UHGV virus genome: UHGV-0247912
Length of the DNA stretch: 12,589 bases
Reading direction: 5' to 3' (one strand)
Source of the DNA: a virus
Part shown: piece by piece, positions 3,607 to 9,983 of the stretch
Numbering within the stretch: position 1 is the stretch's first letter
Layout of the letters: every line of letters begins with the position of its first letter
Notes under the pieces: model-generated
Seen by the model: the letters and a program-made list of their open reading frames with translations, nothing else
Told to the model about the DNA's origin: nothing
Database searches by the model: none
Program-made: the position numbers and the translations under genes

Positions 3607-3626
3607 AAGCCGTTTGCTCAAGTTAA

Positions 3627-5042
3627 TTAAAAAGATGCGTTATTCTGATTGTTTCGTTGGTTAAATCGGCTTGTGCGATGATTCATGGACTGAATACATG
3701 CAGACGCTGCGCGGGCCTGGTCACAAGGGAGGATATTGCCGTTGTCATCAAACCGCTGGTAAACAGTGCCAGTTTTCCCGTGACGGTTTTTAGATACAAT
3801 TATTTCCATATATTCGCGTGCTACAGACTGTTCATCGTAGTAACCATCGCGGTACACCATGATGATCCTGTCTGCATCTTGCTCAAGGTTCCCTGAATCA
3901 CGAAGATCAGAATTGTTAGGACGCTTGTTCGGGCGCTCCTCAACGCGGCGGGACAACTGCGCCAGCGCCAACACTGGTACGCGCAATTCTTTCGCCATCA
4001 TCTTCAACGACCACGACAATTGCCCTACAGCGAGATCGTGACGTTCGGCCTTAGCCAGCTTCATCAACCCTATGTAGTCAATCATTACCATACCCATGCT
4101 GGGGTGTTCCTGTTTCATCCGTTCTACGGTGGCGCGCATTTCCTCAACCGTTAACTGCGAAGCGTCAACGATCCACACATCAAGGTTAGCAAGTGCGCTC
4201 ATTCCCTGGCCGACATGCGCCCAACCATCATCATCAAGTTTTACCGGATTGCGCAGGCAGTCAGTTGATAAATTACCAGCGCCAGCGATGGCACGTTCGG
4301 TCATCTGATCGAGTGACATCTCAAGCGTGAAGAACAAAACGCCAACACGCTGATCCTTGCTGCCAGGGTAAGGGCATTCAGCAGCAGCGCGGGCAATTGC
4401 CAGCGCCAACGCAGATTTACCAGACCCAGGACGTCCGGCGAGAAGCACCAAATCAGTAGCGTTAATGCCGCCTAACATTTCGTCGAGTGGTTCTATCCCC
4501 GTTTTGATGTTGTCAGAATTGACACCGCATTCCATGCGTTTGCTTAACACCTCCGTGTATTCCTGTACCGCATCGCGCAACAACACCGGAATGATCTTGT
4601 CTTTCGTTACCTTTAATTTTGAATACCGGGAATCAAAATCCTTCATCGTTTCTTTGACTACTTCAAGCGTCCCCGTTTCCAGTTTGTAGCGCATATCGTC
4701 GATGAGTTCCAACATCTGCCGCCGCTGGTGCTCTTCACGTAGTAGCTGTGCGTATCCCTTCAGGTTGGCAGCAGAAGGACACGATCGCGCCGTTTGCATC
4801 AGTGGTACAAAGTTTTCATTGCCAATCTCATCGCCAACCAATAACGCGTCTATAAGATTTCTGTTTCTGGCTTGCGCCCGGATAACTTCAAACGCACGTT
4901 TATAAAGCGGGATCGTGAACACTTCAGGATCAAGCGTGGCGAGAACATCTTGCGCGTTAGGAGTAAGGCCACCCAACAACAGCCCGCCGATAACTGACGC
5001 CTCACGTTCCTGCCGTAGTGAGTTTATTTGCTCAGTTACCAT
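3627..5042 (-). CDS. replicative DNA helicase, DnaB family
   Basis: 471 aa; Walker A GRPGSGKS, DnaB-type motifs (FFTLEMS, IIVSKNRHGKTG, RFDDNG); RBS GGAGGAAA 8 nt before the ATG at 5042. C-terminal tail is longer than in E. coli DnaB. Confidence 0.9.
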   Translation of the reverse strand: MVTEQINSLRQEREASVIGGLLLGGLTPNAQDVLATLDPEVFTIPLYKRAFEVIRAQARNRNLIDALLVGDEIGNENFVPLMQTARSCPSAANLKGYAQLLREEHQRRQMLELIDDMRYKLETGTLEVVKETMKDFDSRYSKLKVTKDKIIPVLLRDAVQEYTEVLSKRMECGVNSDNIKTGIEPLDEMLGGINATDLVLLAGRPGSGKSALALAIARAAAECPYPGSKDQRVGVLFFTLEMSLDQMTERAIAGAGNLSTDCLRNPVKLDDDGWAHVGQGMSALANLDVWIVDASQLTVEEMRATVERMKQEHPSMGMVMIDYIGLMKLAKAERHDLAVGQLSWSLKMMAKELRVPVLALAQLSRRVEERPNKRPNNSDLRDSGNLEQDADRIIMVYRDGYYDEQSVAREYMEIIVSKNRHGKTGTVYQRFDDNGNILPCDQARAASACIQSMNHRTSRFNQRNNQNNASF

Positions 5043-5060
5043 TATGTTATTTCCTCCGGT

Positions 5061-6179
5061 TTACAAAATGGAAAATTCAGGGTAATAAACAAAGCGCCCG
5101 ATCTCTCCATGATCCTGGCTGTAAATAATAACCGCCGCCAGGCGACGCGACCGCCAGCCGCCATTAGTCGAATAGGCATCCTTACCCGCTAACGTGCCGT
5201 GATACTCAACAACGCCAAGCGATGACTCGATCAGCCGTTGATGATGCCAGTGCCCGCAGTGGGCGTAAACAGCAGCAGACTTGCCGAAATCCTCGCGCCA
5301 GTCAGCTACGCAAGCAGACAATAAATTTTCTGGCTTTTTGATAGTGTGCCCGTGGTGGTAAGCAAGAAATGTTTTGCCGTACTGTGTGTGGTGGACGATA
5401 GCAGGGGACACATCAACCGTCACGCGCGGTTCATCTTCGTAAAAAGCCGCCAGCGCCGCACGTAGCCAAATCATGCCTGACTGATCGTGATTGCCTGATA
5501 ACACCTGGATTTCAACATCTTTATGATTTAACAACATCTTTCCTACCGCCCGCCGTACAGACCGGATCGCCACATAAACAAGTTTTGCGTAGCGACTATC
5601 CTGATCAAGAATATGCCCGCTTGTTGGCGTAACCGGGACCATACCATCAGAATGAAGCAGGTCACCACCGAGAAGTAAGACGGCTTTTTCAGACATCGGA
5701 GCAGCGCCAACGGCATAATCAAAGAAGTTATTTAGCACGCGTTCAGCGATCCCAGTGTCGTAGCTCTCGCCGCATTCAGCTTTATGGGCAAGCGCCCCGA
5801 TATGCAGATCAAACACAGGATAAAGGGCCAGGCTTTTTTGAAAATCAATTTCAGGCACTGGCACAGCCTCCGCGCGTGGTATTTCATCAGTGAAAGCGTC
5901 GCGGGCCGCTTCCATTAGCTGTTCCATTTCTTCGCGGTCACGGGCTGTTTTAATCCAGCGCATGATAACATTGCCGTTCTTATCCACTAGCAACGACTCA
6001 CCATTGACGCCAAAACCAGGCGCGCGGCGTGTTGATAATAAACCCCGTTTCGCCAGTTTTGCGCCCAGGCGTTCGACATTGCGTTTAGACATGCCGTACT
6101 TTTCAGCGATCTGTTTGTACGTTAATCCGTTGTTATATTCAGCGATCAATTGCTCATCACTGATTTTTCTTTGCGACAT
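5061..6179 (-). CDS. HTH domain + calcineurin-like metallophosphoesterase domain protein (372 aa)
   Basis: ATG at 6179 with GGAGGG RBS (the track start at 6203 is an alternative start codon). N-terminal HTH (LTYKQIAEKYGMSKRNVERLGAKLAKRGLL); phosphoesterase-type motifs FDLH, GGDLLHSDG, GNHD, HHGH, GHWHH. Confidence 0.7.
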   Translation of the reverse strand: MSQRKISDEQLIAEYNNGLTYKQIAEKYGMSKRNVERLGAKLAKRGLLSTRRAPGFGVNGESLLVDKNGNVIMRWIKTARDREEMEQLMEAARDAFTDEIPRAEAVPVPEIDFQKSLALYPVFDLHIGALAHKAECGESYDTGIAERVLNNFFDYAVGAAPMSEKAVLLLGGDLLHSDGMVPVTPTSGHILDQDSRYAKLVYVAIRSVRRAVGKMLLNHKDVEIQVLSGNHDQSGMIWLRAALAAFYEDEPRVTVDVSPAIVHHTQYGKTFLAYHHGHTIKKPENLLSACVADWREDFGKSAAVYAHCGHWHHQRLIESSLGVVEYHGTLAGKDAYSTNGGWRSRRLAAVIIYSQDHGEIGRFVYYPEFSIL

Positions 6180-6212
6180 AATGTTAATCCCTCCAGTTAA
6201 CAAAATGTATAC

Positions 6213-6944
6213 CTACTTACACGCAAAAAGTTCAGACACCCAAAGTTGACCCTTAGCAGTAAATAGTGATTGGACGTAACCTCCAGCCGAACATTTTACC
6301 ACTCCATAGCCTTTGTCTACGAACCACTGCTTGAACATACGCCCGCCGCGCTTAATTCTCGTATCGTACACGTCAACCTGTTCAAGTTTTTTGTTGAGTT
6401 GCGTAGCAGTCATACCCAAAGGCTTGGCAACCTGTGTAGCGTTGCGATGCTGTTCGTTTCTTACAATCGCATCACAGACAGCCGCTTTCGGTGCTAATTC
6501 CTTATTTTCCAGCGCCAGACGATCAATTTCTTTCTGTGCTAATAGTTTTTGTTCAACCTCATCAGCCCATGCGCGAGCCGCCGCCACCGGATCAGTGAAA
6601 TCCGGCAAAGCTGGCTGCCGTACCTGTTTTTCGAGTTCCTGCCAGCGATCGACAAGTCGCGCCGTAAATTCAGGGCAGTTTTGAGCAACGACAATTATAC
6701 TATCTCGCTTGCCCTGCTCGCCTTCAAAAACGTAGGCCTTATCTTTTACCTTGAATCCTAAGTTATTGATTCTTTCGAGAAACTGCAATGCAGGACGCCG
6801 GATTACACCTTTATCAGCAAGGCGTTCTATAGAAACAAGCATGTTATCGTGACGGAACTTATTAACTCCGTTCCACTTATTTAGAAAATCAACGATCTCA
6901 ATACTGTTCATCTTAACAGCATCAAACACCATTAATTCAGACAT
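6213..6944 (-). CDS. rha: Rha-family phage regulatory protein / antirepressor-like (Rha N-terminal domain + ANT/KilAC-like C-terminal domain)
   Basis: ATG at 6944 with GGAG RBS. N-terminus has SIEIVDFLNKWNGVNKFRHDNMLVSIERL (the RHDN signature of Rha); C-terminus has ATQVAKPLGMTATQLNKKLEQVDVYDTRIKRGGRMFKQWFVDKGYG. Confidence 0.7.
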   Translation of the reverse strand: MSELMVFDAVKMNSIEIVDFLNKWNGVNKFRHDNMLVSIERLADKGVIRRPALQFLERINNLGFKVKDKAYVFEGEQGKRDSIIVVAQNCPEFTARLVDRWQELEKQVRQPALPDFTDPVAAARAWADEVEQKLLAQKEIDRLALENKELAPKAAVCDAIVRNEQHRNATQVAKPLGMTATQLNKKLEQVDVYDTRIKRGGRMFKQWFVDKGYGVVKCSAGGYVQSLFTAKGQLWVSELFACK

Positions 6945-7076
6945 TGTAATTTCTCCGTAAAACGCGCTACAACGCAAAAATCCCACCGCGTAACCCGTTT
7001 GCACAGGTTGCAGTGTCTTATTGCGTTATAGACGCTCTCAGGTGGCTAATTTTTGATTTACAGGATGGTATGAAGG

Positions 7077-7178: not shown

Positions 7179-7311
7179 TTTGAAATCCTCTCTAAAACGC
7201 TCTCTAACGAGATAAATAGCTAAAGGTATGCAAGTGTAGCACTCAATGCTTTTTAGCTCGCTGGCGAGCTTGTTTTGCGGGTAATTTTGTGTTTTTGCGG
7301 ATCGTGTTTGG

Positions 7312-8364
7312 TCAAAGAGCGCCACATCGTGTATCACGTAGCGTTTTTGGTTTAAGCAGGAAATCAAGTGTCGCAGTGAAGCCATCGCCGAAGTAAAAAT
7401 CTGAAGCATTGTTTTTGAACGTTTCAAAGTAGGCGACAAAGCCGTTAATGCTTTTGTCTTTCAGGTAGTCAGTGAACGCATAAATCTTGCGTTCAAGATC
7501 CCGATCCAGTTCGGCAGGTGGCAACATGCCATCAAACGTGCTGTTAAATGCCTCCACTACGTCGGCAGCGTTTGCAGTGGCTGACAGTTTGCGCCATTTT
7601 TCAGCATCAGCCAGATACCCATCAAATTTAGTCACCCGGCAAATGTTTATAGGCTTAGGTGTTCCACCACGGCTACGCCATTGCGTTAAAGCCCACTCAA
7701 TCACTAATGTGATCTCATCCTCCGTATACGCTTTACGTGTTTTTGTTTCTGTCAGTAGTTCTACGAATGGCTTAGCATCACGACATTTACACCCTGCCTT
7801 TTCGTTGTAGAAGTCAAGGCAACGCAATGCCGCATCGCTTATCTGAAAGTCACCATCCTGATTAACTTCTTTTCTTTTTATATTTTTCTTTTCTTCTTCT
7901 GTTTCTTTTTCTTCTTCTACTTCTATTTCTAATTCATGACCCTTTCCTGACCCGGTCATGACCCTATCATGACCCTTTGGTGTTGGATTGATTAACTTTT
8001 CTAATTTTAATTGCTCCTTCGCTGTGTTTATGGCGGCCCTGTAAGCGCTTTTAGAAGTCATTGATTGGTCCAGCCTTTTCAATAACTTTAAACAAGTTAT
8101 GTGGCCTTGAGAACATTCAAACAAACCAATTTCGATGAAGTATTTCATCATTTCTTCTATACGTTTTTCAGTAGATCCGACGTTTCGCGCAATGATTCTC
8201 GCGTCATGTCGTAGGTCAAAAGTCAGATTGTGCTGATCTACGTCATAAGTTATTAGTTCGAGGCAATACCAATAAAGCCCGTACCCTTCCAGGCCATAAT
8301 CTAACAAAACGTTTTGAAGTTTTTCATCGCGGTTCGCATCGCTGTCATGCTTAAACCACTTCAT
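7312..8364 (-). CDS. replication initiation protein / replisome organizer (O-like, phage replisome-organizer N-terminal domain type)
   Basis: 350 aa; N-terminus MKWFKHDSDANRDEKLQNVLLDYGLEGYGLYWYCLELI matches the replisome-organizer N-terminal domain pattern; acidic/basic linker; RBS GGAGGG; lies directly downstream of the immunity region. Confidence 0.8.
   Translation of the reverse strand: MKWFKHDSDANRDEKLQNVLLDYGLEGYGLYWYCLELITYDVDQHNLTFDLRHDARIIARNVGSTEKRIEEMMKYFIEIGLFECSQGHITCLKLLKRLDQSMTSKSAYRAAINTAKEQLKLEKLINPTPKGHDRVMTGSGKGHELEIEVEEEKETEEEKKNIKRKEVNQDGDFQISDAALRCLDFYNEKAGCKCRDAKPFVELLTETKTRKAYTEDEITLVIEWALTQWRSRGGTPKPINICRVTKFDGYLADAEKWRKLSATANAADVVEAFNSTFDGMLPPAELDRDLERKIYAFTDYLKDKSINGFVAYFETFKNNASDFYFGDGFTATLDFLLKPKTLRDTRCGAL
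7861..7933. repeat. AT-rich homopyrimidine/homopurine tract next to the iterons (candidate DNA unwinding element)
   Basis: About 70 bp almost entirely C/T on the plus strand (cttcttttctttttatatttttcttttcttcttctg...); encodes the Glu/Lys-rich linker of the initiator. Confidence 0.5.
7934..7977. repeat. four tandem 11-bp iterons (TCATGACCCTT-like), candidate origin of replication inside the initiator gene
   Basis: Plus strand units: 7934-7944 tcatgaccctt, 7945-7955 tcctgacccgg, 7956-7966 tcatgacccta, 7967-7977 tcatgaccctt. Units 1 and 4 are identical; the period is one helical turn. Confidence 0.6.
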
Positions 8365-8367
8365 AGA

Positions 8368-8625
8368 TCATCCCTCCGGCAACATCACTACATAGACATC
8401 ACTGAATGCATCAAGACGACAAACAAATCCTTTATCCATTAACGCGGCGAAGGCATCATGTACCGTATGAACAGGAAGTTCACACATTGCGGCTACTTCT
8501 TTGCGTGATGCATCATGTACCCGTCCTTTGTTATCTGCCTTTTCAGCCAGAGCCATTAAGACAAGTTTTTGAATCGGGCTATTAAGTTTTACGTTCCATG
8601 CTTTACTAATCATGTTTATACTCAT
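8368..8625 (-). CDS. small HTH / winged-helix DNA-binding protein (85 aa), first gene of the rightward-type operon (Cro/CII position)
   Basis: ATG at 8625 with AGGAG RBS (track ORF 8368..8703 starts earlier without an RBS); KLVLMALAEKADNKGRVHDASRKEVAAMCELPVHTVHDAFAALMDKGFV looks like a winged-helix DNA-binding domain. Confidence 0.55.
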   Translation of the reverse strand: MSINMISKAWNVKLNSPIQKLVLMALAEKADNKGRVHDASRKEVAAMCELPVHTVHDAFAALMDKGFVCRLDAFSDVYVVMLPEG

Positions 8626-8733
8626 CGCATTTTCTCCTATGGTTAGAGTGAACGCGCGGGCGGGCATCCCATTAGCATTAGATAGCAGTGACTGACCGCT
8701 CAACAGATCCCGCCGTTGCGTGATATTTGTTTT

Positions 8734-8929: not shown

Positions 8930-9577
8930 ATGAAAACAAAATGGTATGACTTAGCAAAGCAGCTCATGCGGGCGCAGGGCATGAGCCAGGATTCACTCGC
9001 GGATCGTATGGGGATAACTAAAGGCGGCCTGTCACACTGGCTGAACGGTCGCCGAGAGCCAAATCTTGAAGATATTGCGCGGATTATGCGCGAGCTTGGT
9101 CGTCGGCAGTTTACTGTTACACATGATGGCATGGTCATTGATGATTCTGTTTCTAATACACTTCAGGCCGTGCCGCCGCGTGATTTAGGTAGTTACCCGG
9201 TTATTGACTGGAAGGACACAGTAAACAATATGGATGACGCAAGGCGTTCAGCATTACGACACGTTACGACTAGCGTTATTTGTTCAGATGACAGTTACTG
9301 GCTGGTTGCCAAAGGTGAATCAATGAACGCGCCGCAGGGGTTGAGCATCCCGGCGGGGACGATGATACTTGTGGACCCGCACGCGCCAGCTATTGACGGC
9401 AAACTGGTTATAGCCCAGCTTGAGGAAGGGCAGATACCGACGTTTAAACAGTTGATTATTGATGGAGGTCAAAGGCTTTTACGTTCGCTCAATCCGCTGT
9501 ATCCGCCAATCCCTATGAATCCAGAATCAAAAATTATAGGCGTGGTGGTTGATGCGAAGATCGTAAACCTGCCATAA
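8930..9577 (+). CDS. cI: cI-type phage repressor (N-terminal HTH, C-terminal LexA/S24 autopeptidase domain)
   Basis: 215 aa; HTH GMSQDSLADRMGITKGGLSHWLNG; C-terminus GESMNAP...TFKQLIIDGGQRLLRSLNPLYPPIP parallels lambda cI ([24 protein letters not shown]) including the catalytic Ser and Lys. Confidence 0.9.
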   Translation: MKTKWYDLAKQLMRAQGMSQDSLADRMGITKGGLSHWLNGRREPNLEDIARIMRELGRRQFTVTHDGMVIDDSVSNTLQAVPPRDLGSYPVIDWKDTVNNMDDARRSALRHVTTSVICSDDSYWLVAKGESMNAPQGLSIPAGTMILVDPHAPAIDGKLVIAQLEEGQIPTFKQLIIDGGQRLLRSLNPLYPPIPMNPESKIIGVVVDAKIVNLP

Positions 9578-9582
9578 ACATT

Positions 9583-9607
9583 AGCCGCCGAATGGCGGCT
9601 TTTCTTT
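9583..9607 (+). terminator. rho-independent terminator after the repressor gene
   Basis: AGCCGCC-gaat-GGCGGCT (7-bp GC-rich stem) followed by TTTCTTT, 6 nt after the stop codon. Confidence 0.65.
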
Positions 9608-9699
9608 GCCTGGAAAACACCAAAACGTAAACAGAAAACGTTATTTATTATTTAAATATCAATGGCATATAAAATATTTTAAAAAAGTATACAAAATGG

Positions 9700-9728
9700 A
9701 TTGACTCGATGTTTTACGGGGCGTATAT
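9700..9728 (+). promoter_or_regulatory. strong sigma70-type promoter (PL-like), AT-rich upstream region
   Basis: -35 TTGACT (9700-9705), 17-nt spacer, -10 TATATT (9723-9728); very AT-rich 9640-9698 (UP-element-like). Confidence 0.5.
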
Positions 9729-9983
9729 TGCGAGTCAAAGGAAGGGCGCAGGTAACAAAAGCAACTTCCTGGCACTTTAAAAATCAGGCTTAACACCTTG
9801 TCAACCGTGGAGTAACTCCCCGATGGGGGACCGAAAGCGGCACTGATAACAAGGCGCATGGGGTGTTTAAAGCGTTACATCCCCCACGAAACCGCACGCA
9901 AGGCGACGAGTCAGCTTGCTTGGAGTGAGCAAGGTCACGCCGGGAACGGCGATGATTGCGGGATTAGTTGAAAGATGTTAAGC

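Follow-up and report, generated by a model that had tools for sequence, protein, structure and literature searches.

A candidate replication origin of 11-bp boxes and an AT-rich tract within the initiator gene of an mEp021-like coliphage

The DNA analysed here is a stretch of 12,589 nucleotides from UHGV virus genome UHGV-0247912 (12.6 kb of a genome of ~54 kb, referred to below as the window), whose source is a member of the mEp021-like 'mEpimmI' group, either a temperate E. coli phage or a prophage. Judged from sequence, positions 7866-7977 are most probably a vegetative (theta-type) origin of replication, formed by four 11-bp boxes and a 66-bp AT-rich tract within the linker-coding part of the phage's own replication initiator gene (Table 1). 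An iteron-type origin embedded in this gene had been proposed in a preliminary description. The proposal was supported by the two-domain make-up of the initiator, the position of boxes and tract in its linker, the exchange of the whole cassette in sister phages, the conserved phasing of the boxes and constraint at the DNA level. The initiator region (7300-8720, 1.4 kb) was searched for relatives, the nearest being E. coli prophages (95%), followed by MagusPhagus and mEp515 (~89%).

Box array and AT-rich tract

All four 11-bp direct repeats of the preliminary description were recovered between 7934 and 7977. On the + strand the units read TCATGACCCTT (7934), TCCTGACCCGG (7945), TCATGACCCTA (7956) and TCATGACCCTT (7967). 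The consensus in gene sense is GGGTCA[T/G]GA, of which GGGTCA is common to all four units. Each repeat had been said to hold the palindrome TCATGA; this is true of three, the unit at 7945 having TCCTGA. Box 2 and the bases following it form a 10-bp palindrome, GGTCATGACC. Tandem Repeats Finder (TRF) returned a period of 11 with 4.2 copies and a score of 64, in agreement with a repeat finder. The array was the top short-range direct-repeat family across the window, and no other iteron-like array was found within these 12.6 kb. A lag-11 self-match of 0.818 over 33 nt was reached by none of 500 dinucleotide-preserving shuffles at lags 7-30; the array is not due to chance. The first 50 kb of mEp515, a phage with the same module, contained a single box cluster, that in the initiator gene.

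The array corresponds to amino acids (aa) 130-144 of a 350-aa protein whose N-terminal domain ends at about aa 125 and whose C-terminal domain starts at about aa 175. It is translated as KGHDRVMTGSGKGHE in the 7312-8364 open reading frame (ORF), the very peptide that had been predicted. Boxes and tract were both placed inside this minus-strand ORF, between its two domains, and thus in the linker-coding part named in the preliminary description.

Because the 11-bp period is out of step with the codons, one DNA word is given three readings: GGT-CAT-GA (G-H-D/E), G-GTC-ATG-A (V-M) and GG-TCA-GGA (S-G). Box 3 is imperfect because a perfect copy in its frame would read TCA-TGA and so contain a stop codon. 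When boxes were sorted by frame across the family, none of 47 in the stop frame was perfect; in the two remaining frames 55 of 88 and 80 of 88 were. Stop-frame boxes usually deviate by one or two bases. Box 3 is TCAAGA, TCATGG or TCATGT in other E. coli alleles, and in relatives the stop-frame copy is TCAGAA, TCAGCA or TCATGC, or one spacing is shifted to 10 bp. Nucleotide diversity (pi) in 29 unique E. coli-type alleles was lowest, within the gene, in the 44-bp array (0.021 overall); at third codon positions it was 0.029 in the boxes versus 0.107-0.127 in the two domains. Boxes 1, 2 and 4 had invariant GGTCATGA cores in these alleles and the number of boxes was always four; the length of the tract varied by 6-nt units (GAATTA or GAAGAA). 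A period out of frame with the codons, carried by the most conserved DNA in the gene, argues that the repeat is selected as DNA and not as peptide.

The tract next to box 4 had been described as a 70-bp homopyrimidine, AT-rich tract. Its AT-richness (22.7% GC, 77% AT) and its place beside the repeats held good; it measures 66 bp, however, and is pyrimidine-rich (91% on the + strand) without being strictly homopyrimidine. No other 66-mer of the window is as strand-asymmetric, and only one stretch of 60-80 bp is less stable. On the gene-sense strand it is purine-rich, with a (N)NTAGAA / GAAGAA hexamer periodicity. A stands at the third position in 91% of the tract codons (e.g. ATA, AGA, TTA, GTA) versus 27% elsewhere in the gene. 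In the purine-rich tracts of the window (7866-7931) and of loci L008-L121, described below, TAGA(A/T) occurred at ~4x the expectation from composition. Its spacings were multiples of 5 or 6 nt, and the best autocorrelation lag was 5 in 41 of 85 unique loci. A 5-nt period cannot have its source in a protein repeat.

Table 1. Features of the candidate origin and of its surroundings in the window
Feature	Position	Strand	Remarks
Replication initiator gene, 350 aa	7312..8364	-	ORF, translation, Pfam, PHROG
Region coding for N-terminal winged-helix domain, aa 1-129	7978..8364	-	presumed origin-binding
Box 1 (gene order), AAGGGTCATGA	7967..7977	-	read GGT-CAT-GA
Box 2, TAGGGTCATGA	7956..7966	-	read G-GTC-ATG-A
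Box 3, CCGGGTCAGGA	7945..7955	-	read GG-TCA-GGA; degenerate
Box 4, AAGGGTCATGA	7934..7944	-	frame as box 1; directly abuts AT-rich tract
AT-rich tract, presumed DNA-unwinding element, codes for E/K-rich linker	7866..7931		composition, stability
C-terminal domain, aa 175-350	7312..7842	-	presumed helicase recruiter; 89-95% identical in five mEp021-type phages and 70% in mEp013 (alignment)
Exchangeable cassette (small winged helix-turn-helix gene, initiator N-domain, boxes, AT tract)	7834..8630	-	blastn breakpoints
Small winged helix-turn-helix gene, 84 aa, upstream of initiator	8368..8622	-	phrog_4617
Phage DnaB-type replicative helicase	3627..5042	-	Pfam DnaB_C (4.8e-76) and DnaB N-domain; phrog_19

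Initiator domains and conservation of the cassette

The protein looks like a two-domain initiator, with repeats and tract in the linker between the domains. Residues 3-87 were matched by the Pfam family Lin1244_N (DUF4373, PF14297) at 43.1 bits (cutoff 25), or at 45.4 bits when the domain was searched in isolation. This was the sole significant Pfam match of the N-domain, and E. coli prophage copies of the protein are labelled 'Lin1244/Lin1753 domain-containing protein' in RefSeq. Residues 132-350 were matched by phrog_20981, phrog_428 and phrog_345. The last two are named 'replication initiation (O-like)', and the 'O-like' matches span aa 132-350 or 220-348 only. Over its last 86 residues the protein shares 36.7% identity with the C-terminus of the P22 gene 18 product (tblastn, E 6e-8). 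No NCBIfam family matched the initiator. A sequence search against PDB chains gave one weak match of the N-domain to a Crp/Fnr winged helix-turn-helix (wHTH) (E 0.037) and none for the C-domain.

An AlphaFold model of aa 1-135 had a mean predicted local distance difference test (pLDDT) score of 72.6, with core blocks covering aa 51-80 at 84-92 and values below 50 from residue 126 onward (the last ten residues modelled). The modelled winged helix consists of a helix at 51-62, a helix at 66-78 and a beta-hairpin wing at 83-90. Among the best structural matches of this model were the winged helices of ORC/Cdc6, a plasmid initiator and the N-domain of DnaD.

The small wHTH protein encoded upstream (8368-8622) was considered as the binder of the boxes and rejected. 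Besides phrog_4617, it has other matches that resemble initiator N-termini, and it is a paralogue (27-35% identity) of the N-domain of the mEp021-type Rep. No box-carrying locus outside E. coli had its gene. Among E. coli phages with identical boxes the protein was 60-100% identical, falling to 60-63% with N-domain and boxes unchanged. Since the small wHTH protein does not track the boxes, the Lin1244_N domain is the better candidate for binding them; the small protein may regulate replication.

Sister phages carry a different unit at the same place. The C-domains of mEp021, mEp010, mEp554 and mEp044 are 89-95% identical to that of the window, and that of mEp013 is 70% identical (tblastn). The N-domain of these five phages is unrelated and belongs to HTH_36 (E 1e-14). 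Nucleotide similarity to mEp010 and mEp021 (blastn) ends at 7833 and restarts at 8631, so that the exchanged unit is ~800 bp long. At the same linker position the sister phages have four iterons of 22-23 bp with internal dyad symmetry (e.g. GGTGACTCTGTGACACTACCCCC), followed by an A-rich stretch; the iteron sequences of mEp021 and mEp010 differ. The iterons were located at 3615-3725 (L001), 3616-3726 (L003), 2110-2221 (L005), 2115-2227 (L006) and 2106-2218 (L007). They are unannotated in the records of mEp021, mEp010, mEp554, mEp044 and mEp013; within this group of phages they amount to a second type of origin, one that is lambda-like.

Outside E. coli, phages of Pantoea, Vibrio and Pseudoalteromonas encode N-domain homologues ~70% identical to that of the window. 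The C-domains attached to them vary, as do the replication genes nearby, which code for a P-like loader, a DnaB helicase or an AAA ATPase. Six loci were inspected, and all six had (A/G)GTCATGA boxes with an 11-bp period, starting no more than a few codons past the domain and followed by a purine-rich AT tract, e.g. CAAGATAAGATTAGATTAGATAAGAATAGA.

A wider survey covered 108 further loci from IMG/VR and GTDB genomes. The 85 unique sequences belong to phages of E. coli, Vibrio, Pantoea and Pseudoalteromonas and to metagenome-assembled genomes of several phyla. A TCATGA array stood just past the N-domain in 58 of the 85 unique loci, with exactly four copies in 38 of these 58. The spacing between boxes was 11 bp in 128 of 165 cases. 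Best-lag autocorrelation was dominated by the 5-6-nt periodicity of the tract, and lag 11 was therefore scored separately. The lag-11 self-match after the domain averaged 20.2 of 33, compared with 13.6 and 13.1 in two stretches taken from the same genes as controls; since the loci lack independence, the p-values for lag 11 are indicative only.

Natural variants retain the layout with other boxes. In L050 and L051 the N-domain is 75% identical to that of the window and the boxes are five copies of AACCATGGCAC (CCATGG-type). Their N-domain differences are concentrated in helix 3 and the wing (aa 64-97 in L050), and in L050 tract and C-domain are nearly the same. N-domains at 50-57% identity are followed, in the same layout, by boxes GTCCCGAC/GTCGGGAC or, in L100, GAGTCAGGAGT. 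In these sequence comparisons, the box changes with the N-domain.

Between the initiator gene and the helicase gene downstream of it, the region 5061-7004 (- strand) encodes an HTH-containing protein that matches phrog_704, 'DNA repair exonuclease' (E 1e-141), and a KilAC/Ant-like antirepressor (PF03374). Gene content of this interval varies among the sister phages. A homing-endonuclease gene lies between the helicase gene and the next upstream gene in mEp010 (L003, 956-1546) and mEp515 (L122, 6082-6636). The window has none at the corresponding place (5042-5061), where the two ORFs are 18 bp apart. On the other side of the initiator region, a cI/LexA-type repressor gene (8930-9577) is transcribed divergently.

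Proposed mechanism and weight of the alternatives

Replication would begin as follows. The initiator would be made from the early leftward transcript, and its Lin1244_N winged-helix domain would bind the four GGGTCA(T/G)GA boxes. The boxes stand one helical turn apart, so the bound proteins would be aligned on one face of the DNA in an O-some-like complex. Strain and protein contacts would open the adjoining strand-asymmetric tract. The O/P22 gp18-like C-domain would then bring in the phage DnaB-type helicase (3627-5042), its likely partner, after which host primase and polymerase would take over and complete the replisome. Transcription of the early operon would pass through the site, as in lambda.

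Three other explanations were weighed and are, even taken together, unlikely. Against them stand the out-of-frame repeat, the tract that invariably accompanies it, the alternative cassette with its own iterons and the lack of any other candidate.

The one that fares best takes the boxes for initiator or regulator sites that serve autorepression, a transcriptional roadblock or handcuffing, with replication starting elsewhere. Plasmid iterons are known to mediate autoregulation as well, the small wHTH gene shares the exchangeable cassette, and the window represents only part of the genome. An AT-rich, strand-asymmetric tract nevertheless always follows the boxes, and a pure operator needs none. 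The sister cassette has lambda-like iterons and an A-rich stretch at the same spot, and there is neither a second box cluster in 50 kb of mEp515 nor another such array in the window. The small wHTH protein does not co-vary with the boxes and is missing from most box loci. We consider an exclusively regulatory role improbable.

It is less probable still that repeats and tract are a by-product of a repetitive, low-complexity linker (HD-VM-type, E/K-rich) and have no function as DNA. The linker is poorly conserved and probably disordered, given its pLDDT below 50 from residue 126, a peptide motif H-D-x-V-M recurs in relatives, and charged residues have purine-rich codons. A peptide origin is countered by a repeat of 11 nt, not a multiple of 3, in which the same DNA word is translated three ways and precisely the copies in which a perfect box would give a stop codon are degenerate. 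At synonymous sites, diversity reaches its minimum in the boxes, whose number is fixed while the in-frame hexamer units vary, and the 5-nt periodicity of the tract in many relatives is impossible for a protein repeat.

Least probable is a hairpin or cruciform of the palindromic boxes, acting as an antisense terminator or attenuator or as a recombination hotspot at a module boundary: a terminator-like stem (GGTCATGACC...TCATGACC) was called on the + strand at 7954-7974 and the boxes lie inside the exchanged cassette, but the stem is followed by a poor T-run (CTTTGGTGTT), seven such sites in the 2.8 kb scanned compare with 3.4 +/- 1.8 expected from shuffles, relatives retain the 11-bp phasing and the number of boxes and not the hairpin potential, and the C-domain-side cassette boundary (7833/7834) is ~100 bp outside the boxes.

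Several observations weigh against an origin at 7866-7977. The least stable DNA of the window is not the tract but 9642-9702, which has no repeats. A charged E/K/R-rich linker is inherently purine-rich, and part of the composition of the tract could be a by-product of the protein. A comparison of Arg and Leu codons in tracts across the family was suggestive but is biased by the choice of the most purine-rich window, and was not relied on. Part of the co-variation of boxes and N-domain is plain co-inheritance, since the two are physically linked. Some family members (L085, L096, L106-L108) had no boxes after the N-domain. The contiguous sites, at 11 bp, fall short of the length of classical iterons, both in lambda (19 bp) and in plasmids. 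The mEpimmI genome paper mentions no origin, and a literature search, which left most subscription journals outside so that earlier work may exist, returned no description of an origin for mEpimmI phages or for DUF4373/Lin1244 proteins. Under the same limit, searches on mEp021 and on the origin repeats of TP901-1 found no description of such an origin type.

The region 9642-9702 (10-13% GC) was considered as an alternative origin and rejected as a repeat-free intergenic region after the repressor terminator. It lies just past the bidirectional terminator of the repressor gene (9583-9600) and precedes a good sigma-70-like promoter on the + strand (9701-9729). Its probable role is that of a promoter or regulatory region serving the rightward genes.

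Concerning the family members that have no boxes, PF14297 is combined with a T5orf172 domain (PF10544) in proteins P0019 and P0034, and the same kind of T5orf172-type insertion is suspected in L085 and L096. The pairing suggests a fusion of another kind, or a mobile insertion that occupies the place expected for the origin.

Relation to known origins and significance

In ori-lambda, four iterons of 19 bp and an AT-rich region lie in the middle of gene O (PMC7466680). The preliminary description had likened the window to this arrangement, and the order of N-domain, boxes, AT tract and C-domain does match that of ori-lambda (PMC7466680). In both, the origin, known or candidate, sits mid initiator gene, where the linker joins an N-domain that binds DNA to a C-domain that recruits a partner; the repeats number four, show internal dyad symmetry and are translated into protein, with the AT-rich tract on their C-terminal side; and N-domain and iterons are exchanged between related phages as a specificity module. 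The units of the window differ from the 19-bp lambda iterons, each an imperfect inverted repeat, in being 11 bp long, contiguous and one per helical turn, with a 6-bp palindrome in three of the four. The N-domain belongs to Lin1244_N, not to Phage_rep_O, which places the protein outside the lambda O family proper. The C-domain of lambda O recruits P-DnaB, P being a loader for the host DnaB, whereas the window encodes its own DnaB-type helicase, as does P22.

With P22, the window shares an O-like initiator C-terminus related to the gene 18 product and the phage-encoded DnaB-type helicase. The P22 origin lies within gene 18, which adjoins the helicase gene 12. The N-domains of the two initiators are unrelated, and three other genes separate initiator and helicase in the window. 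A third system of matching design is SPP1, whose oriL lies inside gene 38 (PMC6316719). SPP1 has direct repeats together with an AT-rich DNA-unwinding element under the replisome organizer G38P; it differs in having a second origin (oriR), a separate loader (G39P) and a Gram-positive host. No Pfam match to the SPP1-type organizer domain was obtained for the N-domain of the window at E values up to 5.

The iterons of theta plasmids, whose initiators (RepA, RepE, pi) are winged-helix proteins, are typically 17-22 bp long, lie outside the rep gene and usually come with DnaA boxes. In the window, the nearest TTATCCACA-like site (at most one mismatch) is at 9009, more than 1 kb off the array, and the total count of such sites is not above chance. 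A host DnaA-dependent origin of the oriC or plasmid type was rejected for want of any DnaA box in the ~1 kb around the array.

The lambda-like design is familiar. The analysis adds to it the architecture common to the family, the stop-codon account of the imperfect box and the natural specificity variants. Tentatively, and inclining somewhat against it ourselves, we put forward a wider possibility: proteins with Lin1244_N/DUF4373, at present annotated no further than as a domain of unknown function, may be widespread phage and prophage origin-binding initiators that carry their own origin as a portable unit after the winged helix. Such a unit would comprise about four boxes phased at 11 bp that track the domain, the third copy shaped by stop avoidance, and then a purine-rich tract in which TAGA(A/T) recurs with a period of 5-6 nt. 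This tract might be a specific single-strand or helicase-loading element and not a passive AT-rich unwinding region, and the unit would plug into varied C-domains and helicase or loader partners.

If the origin at 7866-7977 is confirmed, the recently defined mEpimmI gut coliphages gain a mapped origin and initiator, and Lin1244_N/DUF4373, a domain common in phage and prophage annotations, gains a testable function in origin recognition. Specificity pairs are at hand: TCATGA and CCATGG boxes with domains 75% identical, and two origin cassettes on one conserved C-domain. The array would also be a case of overlapping codes, in which a DNA repeat of 11-bp period, predicted to bind protein, runs through coding sequence and one particular copy owes its imperfection to the stop codon. 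Practical use would lie in the annotation of prophages and in phage-derived replicons.

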